Assembly: GCA_020148145.1 (NCBI GenBank)
Contig: JAHCRE010000021.1
Coordinates: 2,538 to 66,537 of the forward strand
DNA from: Patescibacteria group bacterium
GTDB lineage: Bacteria; Patescibacteriota; Minisyncoccia; Minisyncoccales; JAHCRE01
Length of the DNA stretch: 64,000 bases
Direction: 5' to 3'
Shown here: in pieces, positions 3,246-63,700 of the stretch
How positions within the stretch are numbered: position 1 is the stretch's first letter
Layout of the letters: every line of letters starts with the position of its first letter
Position numbers and translations under genes: made by a program
The notes under the pieces: model-generated
The model's input: only the letters and a program-made list of their open reading frames with translations
What the model was told of the DNA's origin: nothing
Databases searched by the model: none

Positions 3246-4337
3246 ATGAAATCTTTTTTAGTCCATTTTAAGAAACTTGATTTAATTGTTATTGTCTCCA
3301 CTCTTTTACTTGTTGGAATTGGTCTTTTATCAATATATAGTTCTTCTCTTTCAAGGGGAGATTTTTTCAATTTTAAAAAACAAATTATTTTTTTGGTAAT
3401 AGGGATTTTTCTGATGATAGCTTTAAGTTTTTTTGATTGGCGAATTTTTCAAGATGACCCTTATTTAATTTTAATTTTGTACCTTATTTGCCTAGTTGCT
3501 TTAGCCGGTTTATTTTTTTTCGCTCCCGAAATCAGGGGAGTGAGGTCCTGGTATAAATTAGATGTAGTTTCAATTGATCCAATTGAATTTACTAAAATTA
3601 TCTTGATAATTTTATTGGCTAAATATTTCTCAATGCGTCACGTTGAGATGTATCGCAAAAGGCATATTTTAGTTTCTGGTCTTTATGTTTTAATTCCGAG
3701 TCTTTTAATTTTTTTTCAACCCGATTTAGGCTCAATTCTGATTTTAGTTATTTTATGGGTAGTAACCTTGATTATTTCAGAAATAAAAATTAGCCATTTT
3801 CTGACTCTTTGTCTTTTTTTTCTTTTGATTTTAATTTTAAGTTGGTCATTTTTTCTAGAGGATTATCAAAGACAAAGGATTTTGAGCTTTATTTCCCCTC
3901 AGATTGAACCCTTAGGTATGGGTTGGAGCCAGGCTCAGGCAAAAATTGCTATAGGGTCAGGGGGAGTTTTTGGCCAGGGAATTGGCAAAGGCTCTCAAAC
4001 TCAATACGGTTTCCTTCCTGAGCCCCACACAGATTTCATTTTCTCTGCTATTGCTGAAGAAATGGGCCTGATAGGTATTTTTATTTTATTTTTCTTATTT
4101 TCGATATTGATTTTTAGAATAATAAAAATTGCCCAGTTTTCCAGTAGTAATTTTCCCCGACTTTTTGCCTCGGGCTTCGCTATTTTATTGATTTCCCAAA
4201 TTTTTATTCACATCGGAATGAATCTGGGGATTTTGCCAATAATTGGCATTCCTTTACCCCTGATAAGTTATGGAGGAAGTAGTTTAATCATTACCTTCGT
4301 TGGTTTGGGTATTTTACAAAGTATTAAAATTCATTAA
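3246..4337 (+). CDS. SEDS family peptidoglycan polymerase (FtsW/RodA/SpoVE)
   Basis: Polytopic membrane protein with the typical C-terminal LPLISYGGSSL motif and an LPEPHTDFIFS block. Confidence 0.88.
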   Translation: MKSFLVHFKKLDLIVIVSTLLLVGIGLLSIYSSSLSRGDFFNFKKQIIFLVIGIFLMIALSFFDWRIFQDDPYLILILYLICLVALAGLFFFAPEIRGVRSWYKLDVVSIDPIEFTKIILIILLAKYFSMRHVEMYRKRHILVSGLYVLIPSLLIFFQPDLGSILILVILWVVTLIISEIKISHFLTLCLFFLLILILSWSFFLEDYQRQRILSFISPQIEPLGMGWSQAQAKIAIGSGGVFGQGIGKGSQTQYGFLPEPHTDFIFSAIAEEMGLIGIFILFFLFSILIFRIIKIAQFSSSNFPRLFASGFAILLISQIFIHIGMNLGILPIIGIPLPLISYGGSSLIITFVGLGILQSIKIH

Positions 4338-25296: not shown

Positions 25297-25315
25297 GCCC
25301 TCTTTGTCTTAATGT

Positions 25316-25507
25316 ACCAATTCGTCGCGGCACGCGTCCGAGCCCACAGATTATGTGCTCGGCGCTAACACCGCTCCTTAGAAACCCACGGTTTCTAACG
25401 CTCGCTTTCAGCTCGCTGTTTTCCTTCATGGGGACGCCACCCACCCACCACCCTCCCGCTTCGCGGGCCCCTACCCAGTTTCCCCGACCCCCTTTGTGAA
25501 AATTGGT
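25316..25507 (-). ncRNA. G+C-rich structured intergenic element A (unknown class; related to element C)
   Basis: Closed by the 7-bp inverted repeat ACCAATT (25316-22) / AATTGGT (25501-07). Internal hairpins: TTAGAAAC-5nt-GTTTCTAA (25377-98), CCGAGC-13nt-GCTCGG, CCCGC-GAA-GCGGG. Orientation is inferred from block sharing with element C. Confidence 0.4.
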
Positions 25508-25510
25508 CCA

Positions 25511-32645: not shown

Positions 32646-34701
<2,056 letters not shown>

Positions 34702-35912: not shown

Positions 35913-37598
35913 ATGAAAATCACTGAAAAACTTTTAAAAGAGATTTTGGTTGATTCAGAATTGATTTCTCCAAAAGATTTTAATTTAGCAAAATCAGAGG
36001 CGGAGGATAAAAAAAAACTTCTTGAGGAGATCATTATTGATAGAAAATTGATCTCTGAGGAAGAATTGGGCTCTCTTATTTCCGATAAGATTGGTTTCCT
36101 ATTCGCAAATTTAAAGAAAGTAAAAATAAATAAAGAAGTTTTAGAAACTATTCCAGAGATTGTAGCAAGAAAACAAGAAGTTATTGTCTTTGATAAAACT
36201 AAAGAAGGGTTAAGAGTTGCAATGGCCCACCCAGAAAATTTAGAATTTCGAGAATTTCTTGAAAGAAAAACAGGGGAGAAGGTTATCCCTTATTTTACTA
36301 CCAAAAGAAATATCTCAGCCGTCTTAAAATATTACAAAAAAGAAATAAAAGAAGAATTTGAGGAAATTATTGGTAAGACCCTGGAAGAGTTTAAAAAAAT
36401 TGAAACCAGAGCTCCCCAGTCCTTACCTATTATAAAAATAGTTGAATTAATTCTAAATTATGGTTATGAAAATCGAGCTTCTGATATTCATATTGAGCCT
36501 TATATTAATCAAACTATCTTAAGATATCGAATTGATGGAGTATTGCATGACATTTTGACCTTACCTAAAAATATTCATGATTTTTTAATCTCCAGAATTA
36601 AAATTTTAGCTAAGTTGAGAACCGATGAACACGAAGCCGCCCAAGACGGCCATTTTTCATTTCAGGCTCCCGAAGAGAAATTTGATATCAGAGTTTCAAT
36701 AGTACCAATTGAGGAAGGAGAAAAGGCGGTAATGAGACTATTAGCAGAAAGAGCTAGGAAATTTGAGCTTAAAGAGTTAGGATTGGACTCAAAAGACCTA
36801 AAAATAATTAGAAAAAATCTTAAAAAATCTTGGGGAATGATTTTGGCCACCGGACCCACCGGTTGTGGGAAAACCACAACTTTGTATGGGATGTTAAAAA
36901 TTTTAAATACTAGAGGAGTTAATATTATGACCATTGAGGACCCAATTGAATATGATATTGAGGGAATTAATCAAATTCAAGTTAATCCCAAGGCTAAATT
37001 AGCTTTCTCTCAAGGCCTCAGGGCTATAATTAGACAAGATCCAAATATTATAATGGTAGGGGAGATAAGGGATGAGGAGACGGCAAAATTGGCAATAAAT
37101 GCAGCTATGACTGGCCACCTAGTTTTATCAACTTTCCATGCCATTGATACCCCGACCGTTTTGATAAGACTTTTAGATATGGGAATTGAACCGTTTTTAG
37201 TTATTTCAACTGTTAATGTTGTCATAGCCCAAAGATTGGTTCGAAAAATTTGCTCAAAATGTATTGAAAGCTATGAAACTCCTTTTTCAGAGATTAAAAG
37301 GCTTTTAGGAACTGATTTTGTTTCAAAACTACCAAAAACAAAAAAAAATCAAGTTCGACTTTTTCGAGGCCGAGGCTGCCCCCTTTGTCAAAAAACAGGT
37401 TTTTTGGGGAGAATAGGGATTTTTGAAATTTTAGAAATGAAAGAACCAATTAAAAAATTGGTTTTAGAAAAAGCCCCTTCCTCAAAAATTAAAGAGGAGG
37501 CAAAGAAACTGGGAATGACTACTATGGTTGAAGATGGATTAAAGAAGGTAGAGATGGGAATTACCACTATAGAAGAAGTTTTAAGAACAGTAAAATAA
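35913..37598 (+). CDS. pilB: Type IV pilus assembly ATPase PilB/GspE family
   Basis: N-terminal T2SSE_N-like repeats, Walker A GPTGCGKTTT, Asp/His boxes, tetracysteine CSKC...CPLC. Confidence 0.9.
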   Translation: MKITEKLLKEILVDSELISPKDFNLAKSEAEDKKKLLEEIIIDRKLISEEELGSLISDKIGFLFANLKKVKINKEVLETIPEIVARKQEVIVFDKTKEGLRVAMAHPENLEFREFLERKTGEKVIPYFTTKRNISAVLKYYKKEIKEEFEEIIGKTLEEFKKIETRAPQSLPIIKIVELILNYGYENRASDIHIEPYINQTILRYRIDGVLHDILTLPKNIHDFLISRIKILAKLRTDEHEAAQDGHFSFQAPEEKFDIRVSIVPIEEGEKAVMRLLAERARKFELKELGLDSKDLKIIRKNLKKSWGMILATGPTGCGKTTTLYGMLKILNTRGVNIMTIEDPIEYDIEGINQIQVNPKAKLAFSQGLRAIIRQDPNIIMVGEIRDEETAKLAINAAMTGHLVLSTFHAIDTPTVLIRLLDMGIEPFLVISTVNVVIAQRLVRKICSKCIESYETPFSEIKRLLGTDFVSKLPKTKKNQVRLFRGRGCPLCQKTGFLGRIGIFEILEMKEPIKKLVLEKAPSSKIKEEAKKLGMTTMVEDGLKKVEMGITTIEEVLRTVK

Positions 37599-37860
37599 CA
37601 CTCCATATCGGAAGGGGGTCGGTCAAGACGCGAGGCTTCTCCGCGAAACCTGCGAAGCGGGTTGAGTCGGAAAGCCCCATCTGGGAAACCATTCGGTTCT
37701 CCCGTATAGGAAAATATTAAAAACCGAAGGGACGCGAGAGTTCTTAGCTCTGCGGAAACTCCCGTCCTAGGGTTTTTAAAGAGCGAGCCCGAAGCGAGCG
37801 AAAGCGAGCGCCAGAACAGAGTTCTGGTGAGGGCGAGCGACTAACCTTTGTAATAGCACT
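37599..37860 (+). ncRNA. G+C-rich structured intergenic element C between pilB and pilC (unknown class; related to element A)
   Basis: Shares ordered blocks with the minus strand of element A: AAGGGGGTCGG (37612-22), GCGAAGCGGG (37652-61), CCCCAT (37675-80), GCGAGC-GAAAGCGAGCG (37794-810). These are followed by a hairpin (CCAGAAC-AGA-GTTCTGG, 37811-27). Confidence 0.4.
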
Positions 37861-38910
37861 ATGTTTTTTGTTTCTCAAAAAGAAAAAATGTTTTTTGCTG
37901 AGCATCTCTCTCTAATGATTAAAGGGGGAATACCTCTTACTGAGGCCTTAGAAACCTTAAAGAATGAGACTAAATCAAAGACCTTTAAAAAAACTTTAAA
38001 TAATATTTTAAAAAGAATTTTAGAAGGAGAGAGGCTAAACAAAAGCCTCGGACGTTATCCAAAAATTTTTGATAAATTTTTTTGTAATGTGGTTAAAGTA
38101 GGAGAAGAAAGCGGAACATTAGAAGAAAACCTAAAGTATTTAGCCGGCCAGATTCGATCAGATTATGAGATGAAAAAAAAGGTAAGTGGGGCTCTCATTT
38201 ATCCGGTAATTATCATTACAATGGCTTTAATAATTGCCTTAGTGGTAACCCTTTTCATTTTACCTAAAATAACTAATCTTTTTCAGTTTTTAGAAGTCGA
38301 ACTACCCCTGACTACCAGAGTTTTAATAGGTAGCACTTTCTTTTTTAAAAAATACTGGATTTTTATAATAATTGGAATAATTTTTTTAATTTCCGCTTTT
38401 AGAATTCTCCAAAGGTTTAAATCTACTAAATTTTATTTTGATAAAATCAGCTTTTCTTTGCCATTTTTTAGTCAAATTTTTAAAGGTCTTAATTTAGCTC
38501 GATTTTCTCGAACTCTTTATACTCTTTTAAAGAGTAGGATGCCAATTCTTGAGGCCTTAGAAATTTGTGCCGATACTCTCCCAAATGAAGTCTTTAAAAG
38601 AAGTTTAATTTTGGTTAGATCTGGCGTGGAACGGGGAGAAAAAATTAGTCAAGGATTTAAAAGATTTCCTCAAATCTTCCCCCCAATTTTTTCTCAAATG
38701 GTAGTGGTAGGGGAAAGATCAGGCGCCTTAGAAGAAAGTTTTTTATATCTGGCCGAGTTTCATGAGGGAGAAGTAGATTCTATTTTGAAAAATCTTTCCG
38801 GTATCTTGGAACCAATTTTACTAATTTTAGTTGGAGCTTTTGTTGCCTTTGTTGCTTTAGCAATTATTACCCCAATTTATCGATTTATCGGTGCCTTTAG
38901 ATTCAGGTAA
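37861..38910 (+). CDS. pilC: Type IV pilus platform protein PilC/GspF family (short N-terminus)
   Basis: Two T2SSF repeats (GIPLTEALETL...; RMPILEALEICAD...) and three TM segments. At 349 aa it lacks the about 50-60 aa N-terminal region of many PilC proteins. Confidence 0.88.
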   Translation: MFFVSQKEKMFFAEHLSLMIKGGIPLTEALETLKNETKSKTFKKTLNNILKRILEGERLNKSLGRYPKIFDKFFCNVVKVGEESGTLEENLKYLAGQIRSDYEMKKKVSGALIYPVIIITMALIIALVVTLFILPKITNLFQFLEVELPLTTRVLIGSTFFFKKYWIFIIIGIIFLISAFRILQRFKSTKFYFDKISFSLPFFSQIFKGLNLARFSRTLYTLLKSRMPILEALEICADTLPNEVFKRSLILVRSGVERGEKISQGFKRFPQIFPPIFSQMVVVGERSGALEESFLYLAEFHEGEVDSILKNLSGILEPILLILVGAFVAFVALAIITPIYRFIGAFRFR

Positions 38911-54757: not shown

Positions 54758-54794
54758 AAATATTTTATAATATAAGTGTCGCTTCGCGACACAT

Positions 54795-55124
54795 TCCGGC
54801 GTAGCGCAATGGTAGCGCGGGTGCCTGTGAACTTATACGCAGCTTCCTCGAGAAATCGAGGTTGAAAAACGAGGTGAATTGCGGGAAGCCTAATCCGCCT
54901 TAGGCGGAATGGTAATCCGCAGCCAAGCCCTGTGAGATAATTTCACATCTCATAGGGAAGGTTCAGAGACTATCCCGAAAGGGAGTACCCATTCAGAGAG
55001 TAAATTCTGAATGGGGAAGCGCCTCGCTCCCACAATTTTTGGGAGATGAGATAGTCCACCCTTAGTGGAAACACTAGGATAAGGTGTAAGCACTAGGTTG
55101 TAGGTTCGAGTCCTACCGCCGGAG
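54795..55124 (+). tRNA. tRNA-Asn (GUU) interrupted by a group I intron (exons 54795-54828 and 55087-55124)
   Basis: Spliced product: TCCGGCG-TA-GCGC-AATGGTA-GCGC-G-GGTGC-CTGT/TAA-GCACT-AGGTT-GTAGG-TTCGAGT-CCTAC-CGCCGGA-G. Discriminator G73 fits Asn. Thr(UGU) is the alternative if splicing occurs after U33. Confidence 0.8.
54829..55086 (+). ncRNA. Group I intron (IC3-like, no ORF) in the tRNA anticodon loop
   Basis: AATGGTAATCCGCAGCCAAGCC and GAAGGTTCAGAGACTATCC closely match blocks I recall from the Azoarcus tRNA-Ile and cyanobacterial tRNA-Leu introns. P7 GACTATC/GATAGTC. P1: exon CUGU pairs with GCAG (54839-42), with U.G at the splice site. Terminal G at 55086. Confidence 0.85.
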
Positions 55125-55125
55125 C
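55103..55125 (+). repeat. Direct repeat copy 1 (tRNA-Asn 3' end), GGTTCGAGTCCTACCGCCGGAGC
   Basis: Identical 23-mer recurs at 58172-58194. Confidence 0.9.
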
Positions 55126-55194
55126 AGGCTAGTGCTCGATTCGAGCGACCGAGATGCCTTTGGCTTGTGTCCAGTCCGCAAAGCTGATATTTTT

Positions 55195-56888: not shown

Positions 56889-57081
56889 TTTTGGTTTAAC
56901 ACATATTTTTGGATCACCTAAAATTGCGTCTTCTTGCCGGGTTTCTGCCAAGGCGGTTCAGTCCTAAGCTCTTCGAAGGGTTTTTGTTTTGGAAAGAATG
57001 TGGTAAAACGAATAATTCAACCTCAACCGGAGAAAAAGCACGAACAAACATCAAGTCAAAACACTCTTTTGTGGTCATCCA

Positions 57082-57144
57082 GTAGGTTCTAATGTTGTCC
57101 ACGACTCGGAGCAGGTTAGTGCTCGGTTTGAGAGACCGAGCCGC
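57082..57144 (+). repeat. Degenerate tRNA-3'-end + flank repeat (module alpha), copy R2
   Basis: GTAGGTTCTAATGTTGTCCACGACTCGGAGCAGGTTAGTGCTCGGTTTGAGAGACCGAGCCGC. Compare tRNA end + flank GTAGGTTCGAGTCCTACCGCCGGAGCAGGCTAGTGCTCGATTCGAGCGACCGAG. Confidence 0.75.
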
Positions 57145-57278
57145 ATCTCATTTTCAGAATCAGTTCGAGAAAAAAATCGCCCTACCCCGCTAGGAAATCG
57201 AACTTTTCCGAACAAATAGAAATTCGCCGACGAGGCGAATTTTTGTTAGAATGAAATAAAAGATAATCTAATTAGCTT

Positions 57279-58055: not shown

Positions 58056-58129
58056 AAAAATTAAATTATCAGACAAGGTATCCTTATTGCCCAATTCCCA
58101 AAAAACCAAACTCCAGTATTGTACTCTTT

Positions 58130-58221
58130 GGAGCAGACCGAGCCGCCTATCCCGTTAGGGCGACCGAGAGGGGTTCGAGTCCTACCGCCGGAGCCCGTCG
58201 CCCCGAGAGTTTTTCTCGGGG
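58130..58221 (+). repeat. Composite repeat R3: truncated alpha + GTTAGGGCGACCGAG hairpin + perfect 23-bp tRNA 3' end copy (58172-58194) + beta hairpin
   Basis: GGAGCAGACCGAGCCGCCTATCCCGTTAGGGCGACCGAGAGGGGTTCGAGTCCTACCGCCGGAGCCCGTCGCCCCGAGAGTTTTTCTCGGGG. Confidence 0.85.
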
Positions 58222-58286
58222 TTGATTTTGAGTTAGAGATTTGATAGAGTAGATTTAGATCGTTAACAAAAAATGGGAGTGAGAAG

Positions 58287-58508
58287 GTGAGTAATAGATA
58301 CCAAAACATATATACTATTGGCTTCTTTGTCACATTTATCGGGGCTTTGCTTTGTATGTTCGGTGTAATATGGGAATCCTTATTCTTCATAGCTCTTCCA
58401 ATGATAGTTATCGGAATAGCCTTCACCACATATGCGTCGTGGGATGACAGAGATTTGCGAGACACGAACCGCTGTAAGAACGAGGCCCAACAGAAGTGTG
58501 TAATCTAA
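58287..58508 (+). CDS. Small two-TM membrane protein (GTG start)
   Basis: 73 aa and hydrophobic, followed by a clean terminator. Function unknown. Confidence 0.45.
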   Translation: MSNRYQNIYTIGFFVTFIGALLCMFGVIWESLFFIALPMIVIGIAFTTYASWDDRDLRDTNRCKNEAQQKCVI

Positions 58509-58534
58509 ATCCTCTCTATTTAAATAAGGAATCC

Positions 58535-58566
58535 AAGTCAGGTTTTTTAAACACCTGACTTTTTTA
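58535..58566 (+). terminator. Rho-independent terminator
   Basis: AAGTCAGGT-9nt-ACCTGACTT followed by a T-run. Confidence 0.7.
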
Positions 58567-58584
58567 TTCAACCCCGAGAAAAAC

Positions 58585-58647
58585 AGGTTCTAACATCGTC
58601 CGTCCCTCGGAGCAGGCTAGTGCTCGGTTCGAGGTGACCGAGCCGCC
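58585..58647 (+). repeat. Degenerate tRNA-3'-end + flank repeat (module alpha), copy R4
   Basis: AGGTTCTAACATCGTCCGTCCCTCGGAGCAGGCTAGTGCTCGGTTCGAGGTGACCGAGCCGCC. Confidence 0.8.
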
Positions 58648-58648
58648 T

Positions 58649-58682
58649 AAAAATCGCCAAGAAGGCGGTTTTTTAGTAGAAT
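58649..58682 (+). promoter_or_regulatory. Hairpin + T-run + TAGAAT -10 box module directly upstream of the ATG at 58689
   Basis: AAAAATCGCC-AAGAA-GGCGGTTTTTT then TAGAAT (58677-82), 6 nt before the ATG. Analogous modules lie at 57221-57252 (TAGAAT) and 61378-61409 (TATAAT). Confidence 0.5.
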
Positions 58683-58688
58683 GGGGTA

Positions 58689-61233: not shown

Positions 61234-61299
61234 ATTCCAATAATTCCCTCATCTGTCCCAATACTATCTCTGGATACTTAAACACCTCTTCCTATTTCA

Positions 61300-61370
61300 A
61301 GGTTCTAAAATCGTCCGCTAGACCGAGCATGCGACCGAGAGGCCCTAGGCGTTAGGGCGACCGAAGGGTC
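61300..61370 (+). repeat. Mosaic repeat R5 (tRNA-T-arm-like AGGTTCTAAAATCGTCC + GACCGAG motifs + GCCCTA/TAGGGC hairpin)
   Basis: AGGTTCTAAAATCGTCCGCTAGACCGAGCATGCGACCGAGAGGCCCTAGGCGTTAGGGCGACCGAAGGG. Confidence 0.7.
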
Positions 61371-61415
61371 TCATTTAAAAATCGCCGAAAGGCGATTTTT
61401 TGGTATAATAAAGGA

Positions 61416-63612: not shown

Positions 63613-63663
63613 AGGTTCTAGACCGACTACGGGAGCCCGCCGCCCTGAGAGTTTTTCTCGGGG
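63613..63663 (+). repeat. Repeat R6 (T-arm-like AGGTTCTAGACCGAC + acceptor-like GGGAGCCCGCCGCCC + beta hairpin)
   Basis: ...ACGGGAGCCCGCCGCCCTGAGAGTTTTTCTCGGGG versus R3 GCCGGAGCCCGTCGCCCCGAGAGTTTTTCTCGGGG. Confidence 0.75.
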
Positions 63664-63700
63664 TTTGTTTTGCGGGCGGTTTGAGTTATAATTAGACAAT

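Follow-up and report, generated by a model that had tools for sequence, protein, structure and literature searches.

In the window analysed here, a stretch of 64,000 nucleotides (nt) from a Patescibacteria group bacterium, a G+C-rich block of 262 nt, termed element C, lies between the pilus genes pilB and pilC. We give about an even chance to the reading that element C is a lineage-specific copy of a dispersed, probably mobile, non-autonomous family of structured elements in Paceibacteria-like Patescibacteria. Comparison with related DNA establishes that a family of these structured elements exists, and Rfam 15 does not contain it. At sequence level, the comparison also identifies C as an insertion that fills precisely the space from the pilB stop to the pilC start, a space of 1–10 nt in most relatives, and as a copy that has itself gained two nested hairpin insertions. 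The fold of the family, as modelled, is maintained by compensatory changes.

Insertion at the pilB–pilC Junction

The block had been described in a first-pass annotation of the window, and both its coordinates and its composition are correct. The features concerned are the following.

35913–37598, plus strand: pilB, T2SSE ATPase of 561 amino acids (aa) (ORF list; Pfam PF00437, 1.9e-120, and PF05157)
37599–37860, plus strand: element C (whole), 262 nt, G+C-rich (nhmmer and covariance-model matches; ortholog in L126)
37861–38910, plus strand: pilC, T2SSF protein of 349 aa (Pfam PF00482, 2.9e-58; homologue lengths)

The TAA stop of pilB occupies 37596–37598, and element C abuts it directly, in the sense orientation relative to the pil operon. 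Its G+C content is 54%, against 35% for the window and 17–36% for the ordinary intergenic regions of the window. Compared with shuffled sequences, C folds better on its plus strand (z = −2.9) but not on its minus strand (z = −1.3). A search of the plus strand inside C revealed no terminator-like or promoter-like site, and a terminator or an internal promoter was, therefore, dropped as an explanation. For the same reason, C would have to be transcribed together with pilB and pilC.

The PilC of the window is identical to an NCBI protein that carries the annotation 'Patescibacteria group bacterium'. The related organisms compared belong to the Parcubacteria/Paceibacterales, and the pilB–pilC junction was readable in about 65 of their contigs. 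The gap is 1–10 nt in most of these, among them the five closest PilC relatives (71–77% identity), which have TAA-AT-ATG and similar arrangements; for close relatives it is 1–7 nt. This comparison, which the first-pass annotation had proposed, supports the reading of C as an insertion. The C family occupies only two of the approximately 65 readable junctions, namely those of the window and of L126, a locus with a PilC that is 70% identical. L126 carries a 154-nt insert at the same position and with the same ends, taaCGTCTCATATCGG...GTGATACCACTatg. Element C corresponds to the L126 core with the addition of a 61-nt hairpin domain (37622–37682), a 41-nt hairpin (37728–37768) and a different GNRA-capped hairpin. 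On a neighbour-joining tree of PilC, the window groups with the empty-site locus L205, and L126 groups with L127 and L207. As the two carriers are not sisters on this tree, either two gains or at least four precise losses are needed.

A loss of the 5' end of pilC, replaced or cut short by the insertion, had also been suggested, as the protein is short before its first T2SSF repeat. This repeat does begin early, at residue 12 in Pfam. However, the best 120 PilC homologues are 331–357 aa long, and relatives with an empty site have the same N-terminus as the window, MFFVSQKEK. The truncation is rejected because most of these homologues are 345–353 aa long, which is the normal length for the clade. 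The annotation had taken insert-free relatives with an equally short PilC, together with a lack of other copies, as grounds for giving up the insertion. Such relatives, with the same PilC N-terminus and no insert, were found; other copies of the element do exist.

The Element Family and Its Members

The family was collected with nhmmer, with C, L126 or a second element of the window, element A, as the query against 0.76 Mb of related DNA, and with a covariance model, R1. This model was built from seven copies, A being excluded; lineage-specific insertions were trimmed so that MAFFT aligned the helices, and R1 is thus made from partly trimmed sequences. Together, nhmmer and R1 matched 15 further distinct copies, which makes sixteen in all with C. 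Eight of the 15 are at PilC-anchored loci (L003 and L125 counted as one), and seven are at loci of spurious open reading frames (ORFs), where the seven copies represent six new sequences, since L209–L211 share one. The sixteen copies are spread over 11 kinds of site (one of unresolved context), and empty orthologous sites are found in addition. There are thus multiple copies with presence/absence polymorphism, as is expected of MITEs, the miniature inverted-repeat transposable elements. The length within the family ranges from 105 to 262 nt. The copies in known intercistronic or 5' positions are as follows.

L154 and L168, sense: between groES and groEL
L168, L134 and a reduced copy in L151, sense: between lemA and the gene of an htpX-like protease
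L151, sense: before pilM
L003 and L125, sense: 5' region of uvrC
25297–25510 of the window, minus strand: element A, between the genes of a family-5 solute-binding protein and a cupin-type glucose-6-phosphate isomerase, sense to both

All of these copies have the orientation of their flanking genes and, the uvrC copy excepted, reach or overlap the downstream start codon with their end. In the five intercistronic copies C, L126, L154, L168 (groES–groEL) and L151 (pilM), the conserved tail of the element ends exactly at the start codon; it reads GUAAUACCACU directly before groEL in L154 and L168, and GUAUUACCUCG before pilM in L151. In the three htpX copies, the start codon lies inside the tail.

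The first-pass annotation had proposed that C and A share ordered modules of sequence and structure, and this holds. R1 matches A over its full length at 41.2 bits (E = 1e-9), although A was unused in building it, and recovers all other copies listed above too; in total, it found 13 distinct copies in addition to A. nhmmer links A to L003, L168 and L154. Between A and C there are three collinear common 10–11-mers, with an alignment z of 2.9 that was equalled by none of 300 shuffles; the similarity is specific to orientation, as z is 0.08 in the opposite one. C itself scores 64 bits against R1, which takes a nearer, degenerate 5' strand at 37658 and so bypasses the 61 nt of insertion 1; in C, the 5' strand that agrees perfectly with the consensus is at 37606–37622.

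Further copies were reached through the opposite strand. With LLRNPRFLT...VSPTPF, the peptide that results when the conserved core is translated in antisense, 20 'hypothetical proteins' were found in the protein collection (P0121–P0140). These annotated proteins, at least 20 in number and 58–95 aa long, are spurious antisense translations of the family, and one of them, P0129, occurs on more than 40 contigs. The DNA examined for six such proteins gave eight loci, three of which are one site at a GT4 glycosyltransferase gene in different samples. R1 was run on seven of the eight loci (L209, L212–L216) and matches all of them at 49–85 bits, on the strand opposite to the called ORF. Among these copies are ones upstream of a sugar transferase and ones beside fusA, pth or a tRNA. 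In L213, the element is antisense to fusA and has no co-oriented gene downstream. In L209, L212 and L214 it is antisense to the adjacent GT4 or pth gene, yet upstream of a co-oriented gene, and one copy is downstream of a tRNA.

Two other scans gave no members. The conserved P4 sequence had 0 matches in the viral contigs scanned, and the matches listed from a pattern scan of genome contigs with GGGGGTCGG-N(10–40)-GCGAAGCGGG were chance ones in G+C-rich genomes, with none below 48% G+C among the 120 loci listed.

Conserved Fold and Covariation

The family architecture consists of the closing helix P1 (5' CGGAR...GGUCG / 3' CGAYY...CUYYG), P2, an unpaired junction CCGURUAGGAAAAC, an optional P3, P4 UUAGAAACC/GGUUUCUAA, P5 GCGAGCC/GGCGAGC and the tail GUAAUACCACU before the AUG. 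Across the family, P5 has either a short-loop cap or two extra hairpins. The predicted parts of element C are the following.

37609–37621, plus strand: 5' strands of P1, P1a CGGAA (37609–37613) and P1b GGTCG (37617–37621), in the conserved block AUCGGAAGGGGGUCGG
37622–37682, plus strand: nested insertion 1, the 61-nt hairpin domain (CCUGC-GAA-GCGGG), without counterpart in L126
37683–37703, plus strand: P2 hairpin GGGAAACC-AUUC-GGUUCUCCC (helix 3; 92.5% of cells paired, three pairs changed on both sides)
37704–37716, plus strand: conserved unpaired junction GUAUAGGAAAAUA (family consensus as given above; family alignments)
37717–37779, plus strand: P4 hairpin, UUAAAAACC (37717–37725) pairing within GGGUUUUUAA (37770–37779)
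37728–37768, plus strand: nested insertion 2, the 41-nt hairpin module GGGACGCGAGAGUUC...GCGGAAACUCCCGUCC, inside the P4 loop
37783–37838, plus strand: P5 domain, base helix GCGAGCCC/GGGCGAGC with tandem G·A pairs (helix 6)
37794–37809, plus strand: P5a hairpin GCGAGC-GAAA-GCGAGC, enclosed by the P5 base helix
37811–37827, plus strand: P5b hairpin CCAGAAC-AGA-GUUCUGG, a compensatory change against CCAGCAC/GUGCUGG of L126
37838–37860, plus strand: 3' strands of P1, CGACU (37838–37842) and CUUUG (37846–37850), then the tail UAAUAGCACU, which ends at the pilC start codon

The P3 hairpin, found in most members, is missing from C and L126. P4 forms nine pairs in C, with the first G of GGGUUUUUAA left in the loop; family-wide it is 100% paired, and C and L126 carry a compensatory change from G-C to A-U. 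Helices 1 and 2, which form P1, each have two pairs changed on both sides. In the predicted fold of C, the tail is unpaired and the A/U-rich start region of pilC is left free. At the position equivalent to insertion 1 of C, element A has a similar GCGAAGCGGG hairpin, which is one of the shared 10-mers. The 41-nt module is also found in L168 (15390–15430) at a different position, and in L003 (5233–5272) in reverse orientation within a groES–groEL element; judged by these occurrences, it resembles a smaller, independently mobile hairpin.

Covariation was counted in a model-guided alignment of 10 copies and 40 pairs, in which 93.9% of the cells form standard pairs. As many as 13 of the 40 pairs are changed on both sides, a number reached by 0 of 500 shuffles, and control alignments with the partner slid by 1–3 columns have only 1–4 such pairs. 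All six helices contain at least one compensatory pair. Moreover, 25 cells are G·U and 7 are A·C, and the tandem G·A of P5 is kept in seven of the eight copies with a full helix; the sense strand is, therefore, the folded strand. Both compensatory support and strand specificity, the general marks of a structured non-coding RNA, are thus seen.

The family has no match in Rfam 15. This collection at gathering thresholds gave no riboswitch family over the whole window, and at E ≤ 10 with permissive filters it gave no family match in 37500–37960, the cyclic di-GMP (c-di-GMP) models RF01051 and RF01786 included. For element A, Rfam 15 gave nothing relevant at either setting, and the group I intron model RF00028 matched neither C nor A at E ≤ 10; the same type of search detects a true group I intron at 54770–55078. 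A confident match to a known family, which the first-pass annotation had named as evidence against its proposal, was hence not obtained. In the literature searched, no intergenic RNA or repeat family of Patescibacteria was found, and only a paper on group I introns in tRNA genes came up (PMC13011429).

Indications of Gain, Loss and Replacement at Gene Junctions

The occupancy of other junctions is as sporadic as that of pilB–pilC. Among the groES–groEL junctions, several carry a different conserved element, called 'B-type' and described further below, two carry the C family, several hold unrelated inserts and six are near-empty (2–5 nt). The lemA–htpX and pilM junctions are likewise occupied sporadically. 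Solo tails are present at two otherwise near-empty junctions, TATTACCACT before pilM in L147 and CCACT before groEL in L181, and from their sequence they look like deletion remnants. In L151 (6606–6710), the ends of the family are kept and the interior is replaced. Whole helices, such as P3 and the P5 extensions, are present or absent between copies. The identity from copy to copy is 78–90%, independent of host or site, and that of the adjacent coding DNA is 73–80%.

Inserts of other kinds occur at the same junctions. In other lineages, the pilB–pilC junction holds unrelated inserts with terminal inverted repeats, tandem repeats or another structured family. Other insert families were seen at the pil, lemA–htpX and groESL junctions of L163, L174, L182, L144, L158, L138, L146, L172, L195, L145, L175 and L176. 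They include MITE-like inserts with terminal inverted repeats (CCCCGTAGGAAA...TTTCCTACGGGG and AACCCCGCCCTCTAAGC...TAGAGGGCGGGG). Further junction inserts in the relatives are CTTTAAA repeats in tandem, repeats rich in TACGAAT and one more structured element, about 145 nt long.

Duplicated Gene Termini

At five loci, representing four gene contexts, a second copy of a gene terminus follows the element on its own 3' side, and the gene to which this terminus belongs lies beyond the 5' side.

L209 6001–6257 and L212 6001–6241: first 22 codons of the GT4 glycosyltransferase
L213 4001–4272: about 21 codons of fusA
L214 1031–1299: about 16 codons of pth
L215 3058–3264: 3' end of tRNA-Cys, perfect over 15/15 nt

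The duplications cover 15–70 nt of a gene terminus, and L209 has a perfect 30-nt repeat. It is the duplicate that provides P1 with its 3' strand; an example is GGCGGAGCG...CGCUCCGCC in L212. When the real and the duplicate N-termini are compared, synonymous changes stand against other changes as 9 against 2, 9 against 2 and 9 against 5. Such synonymous-biased differences would be in keeping with a duplicate whose evolution, as in the remainder of the element, is slower than that of synonymous sites; selection at the peptide level or a captured donor fragment are possible alternatives. Template and variable repeats of the kind seen in diversity-generating retroelements were considered and rejected, as the differences are not confined to adenines. 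The decoy ORF runs through the antisense strand of the element; its stop lies at the real start codon or close to it, and in L209 and L212 the two overlap as ATGA. The copies with duplicated termini are antisense to the adjacent real gene, which argues against a simple leader and for a duplication process at the DNA level.

The target-site duplication that had been suggested for C itself fares less clearly. The strings GTAAAATAACACT (37590–37602) and GTAATAGCACT (37850–37860) are both present as described, and an equivalent site is duplicated in other members. However, the best common core, AATAACACT against AATAGCACT (8/9), is no more than marginally unusual, being matched by 124 of 2000 shuffles, and the 3' 'repeat' is the conserved family tail that is also found before groEL and pilM. 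No significant flank repeat was found in four other copies (L126, L154, L168 and L151). A short, decayed duplication may still be present in C, because other members carry clear gene-end duplications at the equivalent position.

A Proposed Mobile Element at Gene Boundaries

Taken as a mobile family, these elements would be, or would once have been, non-autonomous, and they would probably be propagated or recognised as a folded single strand, either RNA or single-stranded DNA. The element would survive only at gene boundaries, where genes stay undestroyed, and in other copies an insertion with a duplicated terminus of the neighbouring gene would keep that gene intact. Element C is probably co-transcribed with pilB and pilC. 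Its helix P1 would bring the pilB stop to about 10 nt from one helix end and the pilC start to about 10 nt from the other, so that downstream translation, which is tightly stop–start coupled in the relatives, could still proceed. C would then be at most a modulator of the pilB:pilC expression ratio and not a ligand sensor. A role as a regulator is disfavoured because there is no functional coherence among the associated genes and because some copies run antisense to their neighbour.

Several points weigh against mobility. No transposase, reverse transcriptase or other mobilising gene has been associated with these elements; terminal inverted repeats are missing, and the intercistronic copies show no consistent target duplication. 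The ends of C, CACTCCATATCGG... and ...GTAATAGCACT, are not inverted repeats, and only the internal P1 strands pair. Copies in the same genome are diverged, A and C sharing short blocks only, and there is, therefore, no sign of recent bursts. Furthermore, the unpaired junction nucleotides are near-invariant and the spacing from tail to ATG is conserved before unrelated genes, and both features would be expected of a functional cis-acting RNA. The covariation was counted in a model-fitted alignment of only 10 sequences, and the PilC tree is that of a single protein, made by neighbour-joining without support values.

More tentatively, the family may be a new type of small mobile element in bacteria of the candidate phyla radiation that moves via a folded single-stranded intermediate and integrates at gene termini with a target duplication of 10–70 nt, or else a new ribozyme or ligand-binding RNA. 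With integration of this kind, the copied segment of the host would serve as 3' strand in the closing helix, and essential genes such as fusA, pth and the tRNA, as well as junctions such as pilB–pilC, would stay functional.

Alternative Explanations

Two explanations in which the RNA serves the host keep appreciable weight, because of the invariant junction nucleotides and the conserved spacing from tail to ATG. According to the first, which we consider rather unlikely, the element is a cis-regulatory leader (a riboswitch, a thermosensor or a protein-binding RNA) in which the junction senses a signal and controls the translation of pilC, groEL, htpX and pilM. The complex multi-helix fold with its near-invariant unpaired nucleotides would suit such a role, and so would the sense orientation, the tail at the start codon in five copies and, for the three htpX copies, a start codon within the tail. 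Two of the genes, groEL and htpX, belong to the classical stress genes, and the element is more conserved than coding DNA. Yet orthologous sites are occupied only sporadically (2 of about 65 at pilB–pilC), and the set of genes, from pilC to a sugar transferase, is incoherent. The coherent sense downstream genes of a riboswitch are not seen among pilC, groEL, the htpX-like gene, pilM, the cupin-type glucose-6-phosphate isomerase gene, uvrC and Bac_transf. The fusA copy in L213 has no co-oriented gene downstream, the copies in L209, L212 and L214 are antisense to a neighbour and one copy lies 3' of a tRNA. P3 and the P5 extensions come and go, and one interior has been replaced. Neither a sequestered Shine–Dalgarno sequence nor a sequestered start codon is evident, the tail being unpaired in the predicted fold.

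The second, an unlikely one, is that of a host-beneficial intercistronic module of the mRNA, which would serve as a processing site and/or a 5' stabiliser, would uncouple the downstream cistron and would have spread by duplication. It agrees with the intercistronic position in operons and with a compact G+C-rich fold immediately 5' of a start region that is unstructured and rich in A/U, and structured inserts are common at the same junctions, such as the 'B-type' at groES–groEL in the window and its relatives. The sporadic distribution and the antisense copies speak against it, as does the lack of a terminator-like or promoter-like site inside C, and nothing in this analysis shows RNA cleavage or stabilisation.

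It is very unlikely that C is a classical MITE whose target-site duplication destroyed the 5' end of pilC. The imperfect flank repeat AATAACACT/AATAGCACT and the empty sites in relatives would agree with this, but PilC is of full length with the same first residues as in empty-site relatives, terminal inverted repeats are missing, and the repeat is one that shuffles reproduce (124/2000), that four other copies lack and whose 3' copy is the family tail.

A small antisense-encoded protein, with LLRNPRFLT...VSPTPF as its recurrent peptide, is highly improbable as the cause of the conservation. Many copies do have an open antisense frame, and at least 20 'hypothetical proteins' were annotated from such frames by gene callers. 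Against this, the htpX copies of L134 and L168 have no long antisense frame, the insertions and deletions are not multiples of three, the correlated changes of E to G and S to P are explained by compensatory pairs of P2, and the asymmetry of G·U and G·A favours RNA or single-strand structure. Antisense coding was rejected on the grounds of the missing frames, the P2 pairs and this asymmetry.

Pilus genes are known targets of c-di-GMP in other bacteria, and a c-di-GMP riboswitch (GEMM-I or GEMM-II) that controls them would be suggested by the loose likeness of GGGACGCGAGAG to a GEMM-I block. The chance of this is negligible, as there is no Rfam match at gathering thresholds or at E ≤ 10 and the block lies in the nested 41-nt hairpin, which is absent from L126 and most members. 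The doubt that the first-pass annotation had expressed over this resemblance was justified by the search with RF01051 and RF01786, and such a riboswitch is refuted at the level of sequence and structure models.

Comparison with Known Systems

Like the ERIC/IRU, REP/BIME, Neisseria Correia and Rickettsia palindromic elements among the small bacterial repeats, the family is short, non-coding, transcribed, intergenic and found inside operons. As with repeats of the ERIC/IRU type, it is better conserved than the surrounding genes, varies in presence, has longer variants that arise by internal insertion and may affect the fate of the mRNA. Unlike these, it is not a simple imperfect palindrome and lacks terminal inverted repeats; it is a junction of 4–6 helices with conserved unpaired nucleotides, tandem G·A and strand-specific G·U. 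Its copies have also diverged within a genome, and several are flanked by 15–70-nt duplications of gene termini.

The GC clusters and 'byp' elements of yeast mitochondria resemble the family in that they are G+C-rich, folded, mobile insertions in a reduced A+T-rich genome, show nesting and are tolerated at or near coding boundaries. However, the present family is bacterial, much larger and has a conserved multi-helix architecture; it is located between cistrons and not inside reading frames, so translational bypass, as in 'byp', is not needed.

Riboswitches and other leader RNAs share with it a complex conserved fold directly upstream of start codons, with variable peripheral helices. In contrast to riboswitches (RF01051, RF01786), the family has no model match, no coherent regulon and no recognisable expression platform, and it shows sporadic occupancy of orthologous sites and antisense copies. 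The group I introns reported in tRNA genes of Patescibacteria (PMC13011429) are likewise G+C-rich structured RNA insertions that are unusually frequent in the phylum. C and A differ from them in having no RF00028 match, in being far smaller than typical intron cores and in their position between genes, where splicing is not required.

Other Observations in the Window

The 'B-type' intercistronic element is found at groES–groEL in the window (32937–33087) and in L001 (5215–5365) and L003 (5195–5379), as well as in L127, L128, L140, L147 (5203–5369) and L213 (about 3820–3935). Its ends, UCGCUCGGCA...GCCUCGCUCU, are fixed and its closing stem is compensated, and the interiors vary. Its assignment to the same family as C was rejected, as R1 has no match on either strand and only a terminal helix motif of the GCGAG type is common to both. 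On the opposite strand, tandem G·A of the sort seen in P5 of C and its kin would be present in the terminal helix of the 'B-type'.

A tRNA gene split by a group I intron of about 260–310 nt (RF00028, 88.7 bits) lies at 54770–55130 on the plus strand. It was found only in the permissive E-value mode and was missed by the gathering-mode scan and by ARAGORN; it fits the report of group I introns in tRNA genes of Patescibacteria (PMC13011429). The G+C-richer intergenic stretches 56889–57278, 58056–58688 and 61234–61415 hold tRNA-like 3' ends. Such ends, consisting of a T-arm and an acceptor (GGTTCGAGTCC...GGAGC), are seen at 57097–57132, 58172–58230, 58598–58633 and 63614–63672. Some are followed by a hairpin and a T-run, and no tRNA is called there (families D10, D17 and D19). 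They may be further intron-split or unusual tRNA genes.

Significance

Patescibacteria have very small, gene-dense genomes with few known regulators or mobile elements. The RNA-like element family described here is conserved and supported by covariation, and neither Rfam 15 nor the literature searched contains it; it occupies the 1–5-nt stop–start junctions of housekeeping operons for the pilus, the chaperonin and a protease. As modelled, the tight pilB–pilC coupling of the relatives can be interrupted by 262 nt of folded RNA with both genes retained. The family would explain many spurious 'hypothetical proteins' in metagenome annotations, and it gives concrete RNAs for testing self-cleavage, ligand binding and mobilisation. 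If the mobile reading is true, it would be a new class of genome 'parasite or tool' for the phylum, sometimes with a copy of the end of a neighbouring gene.

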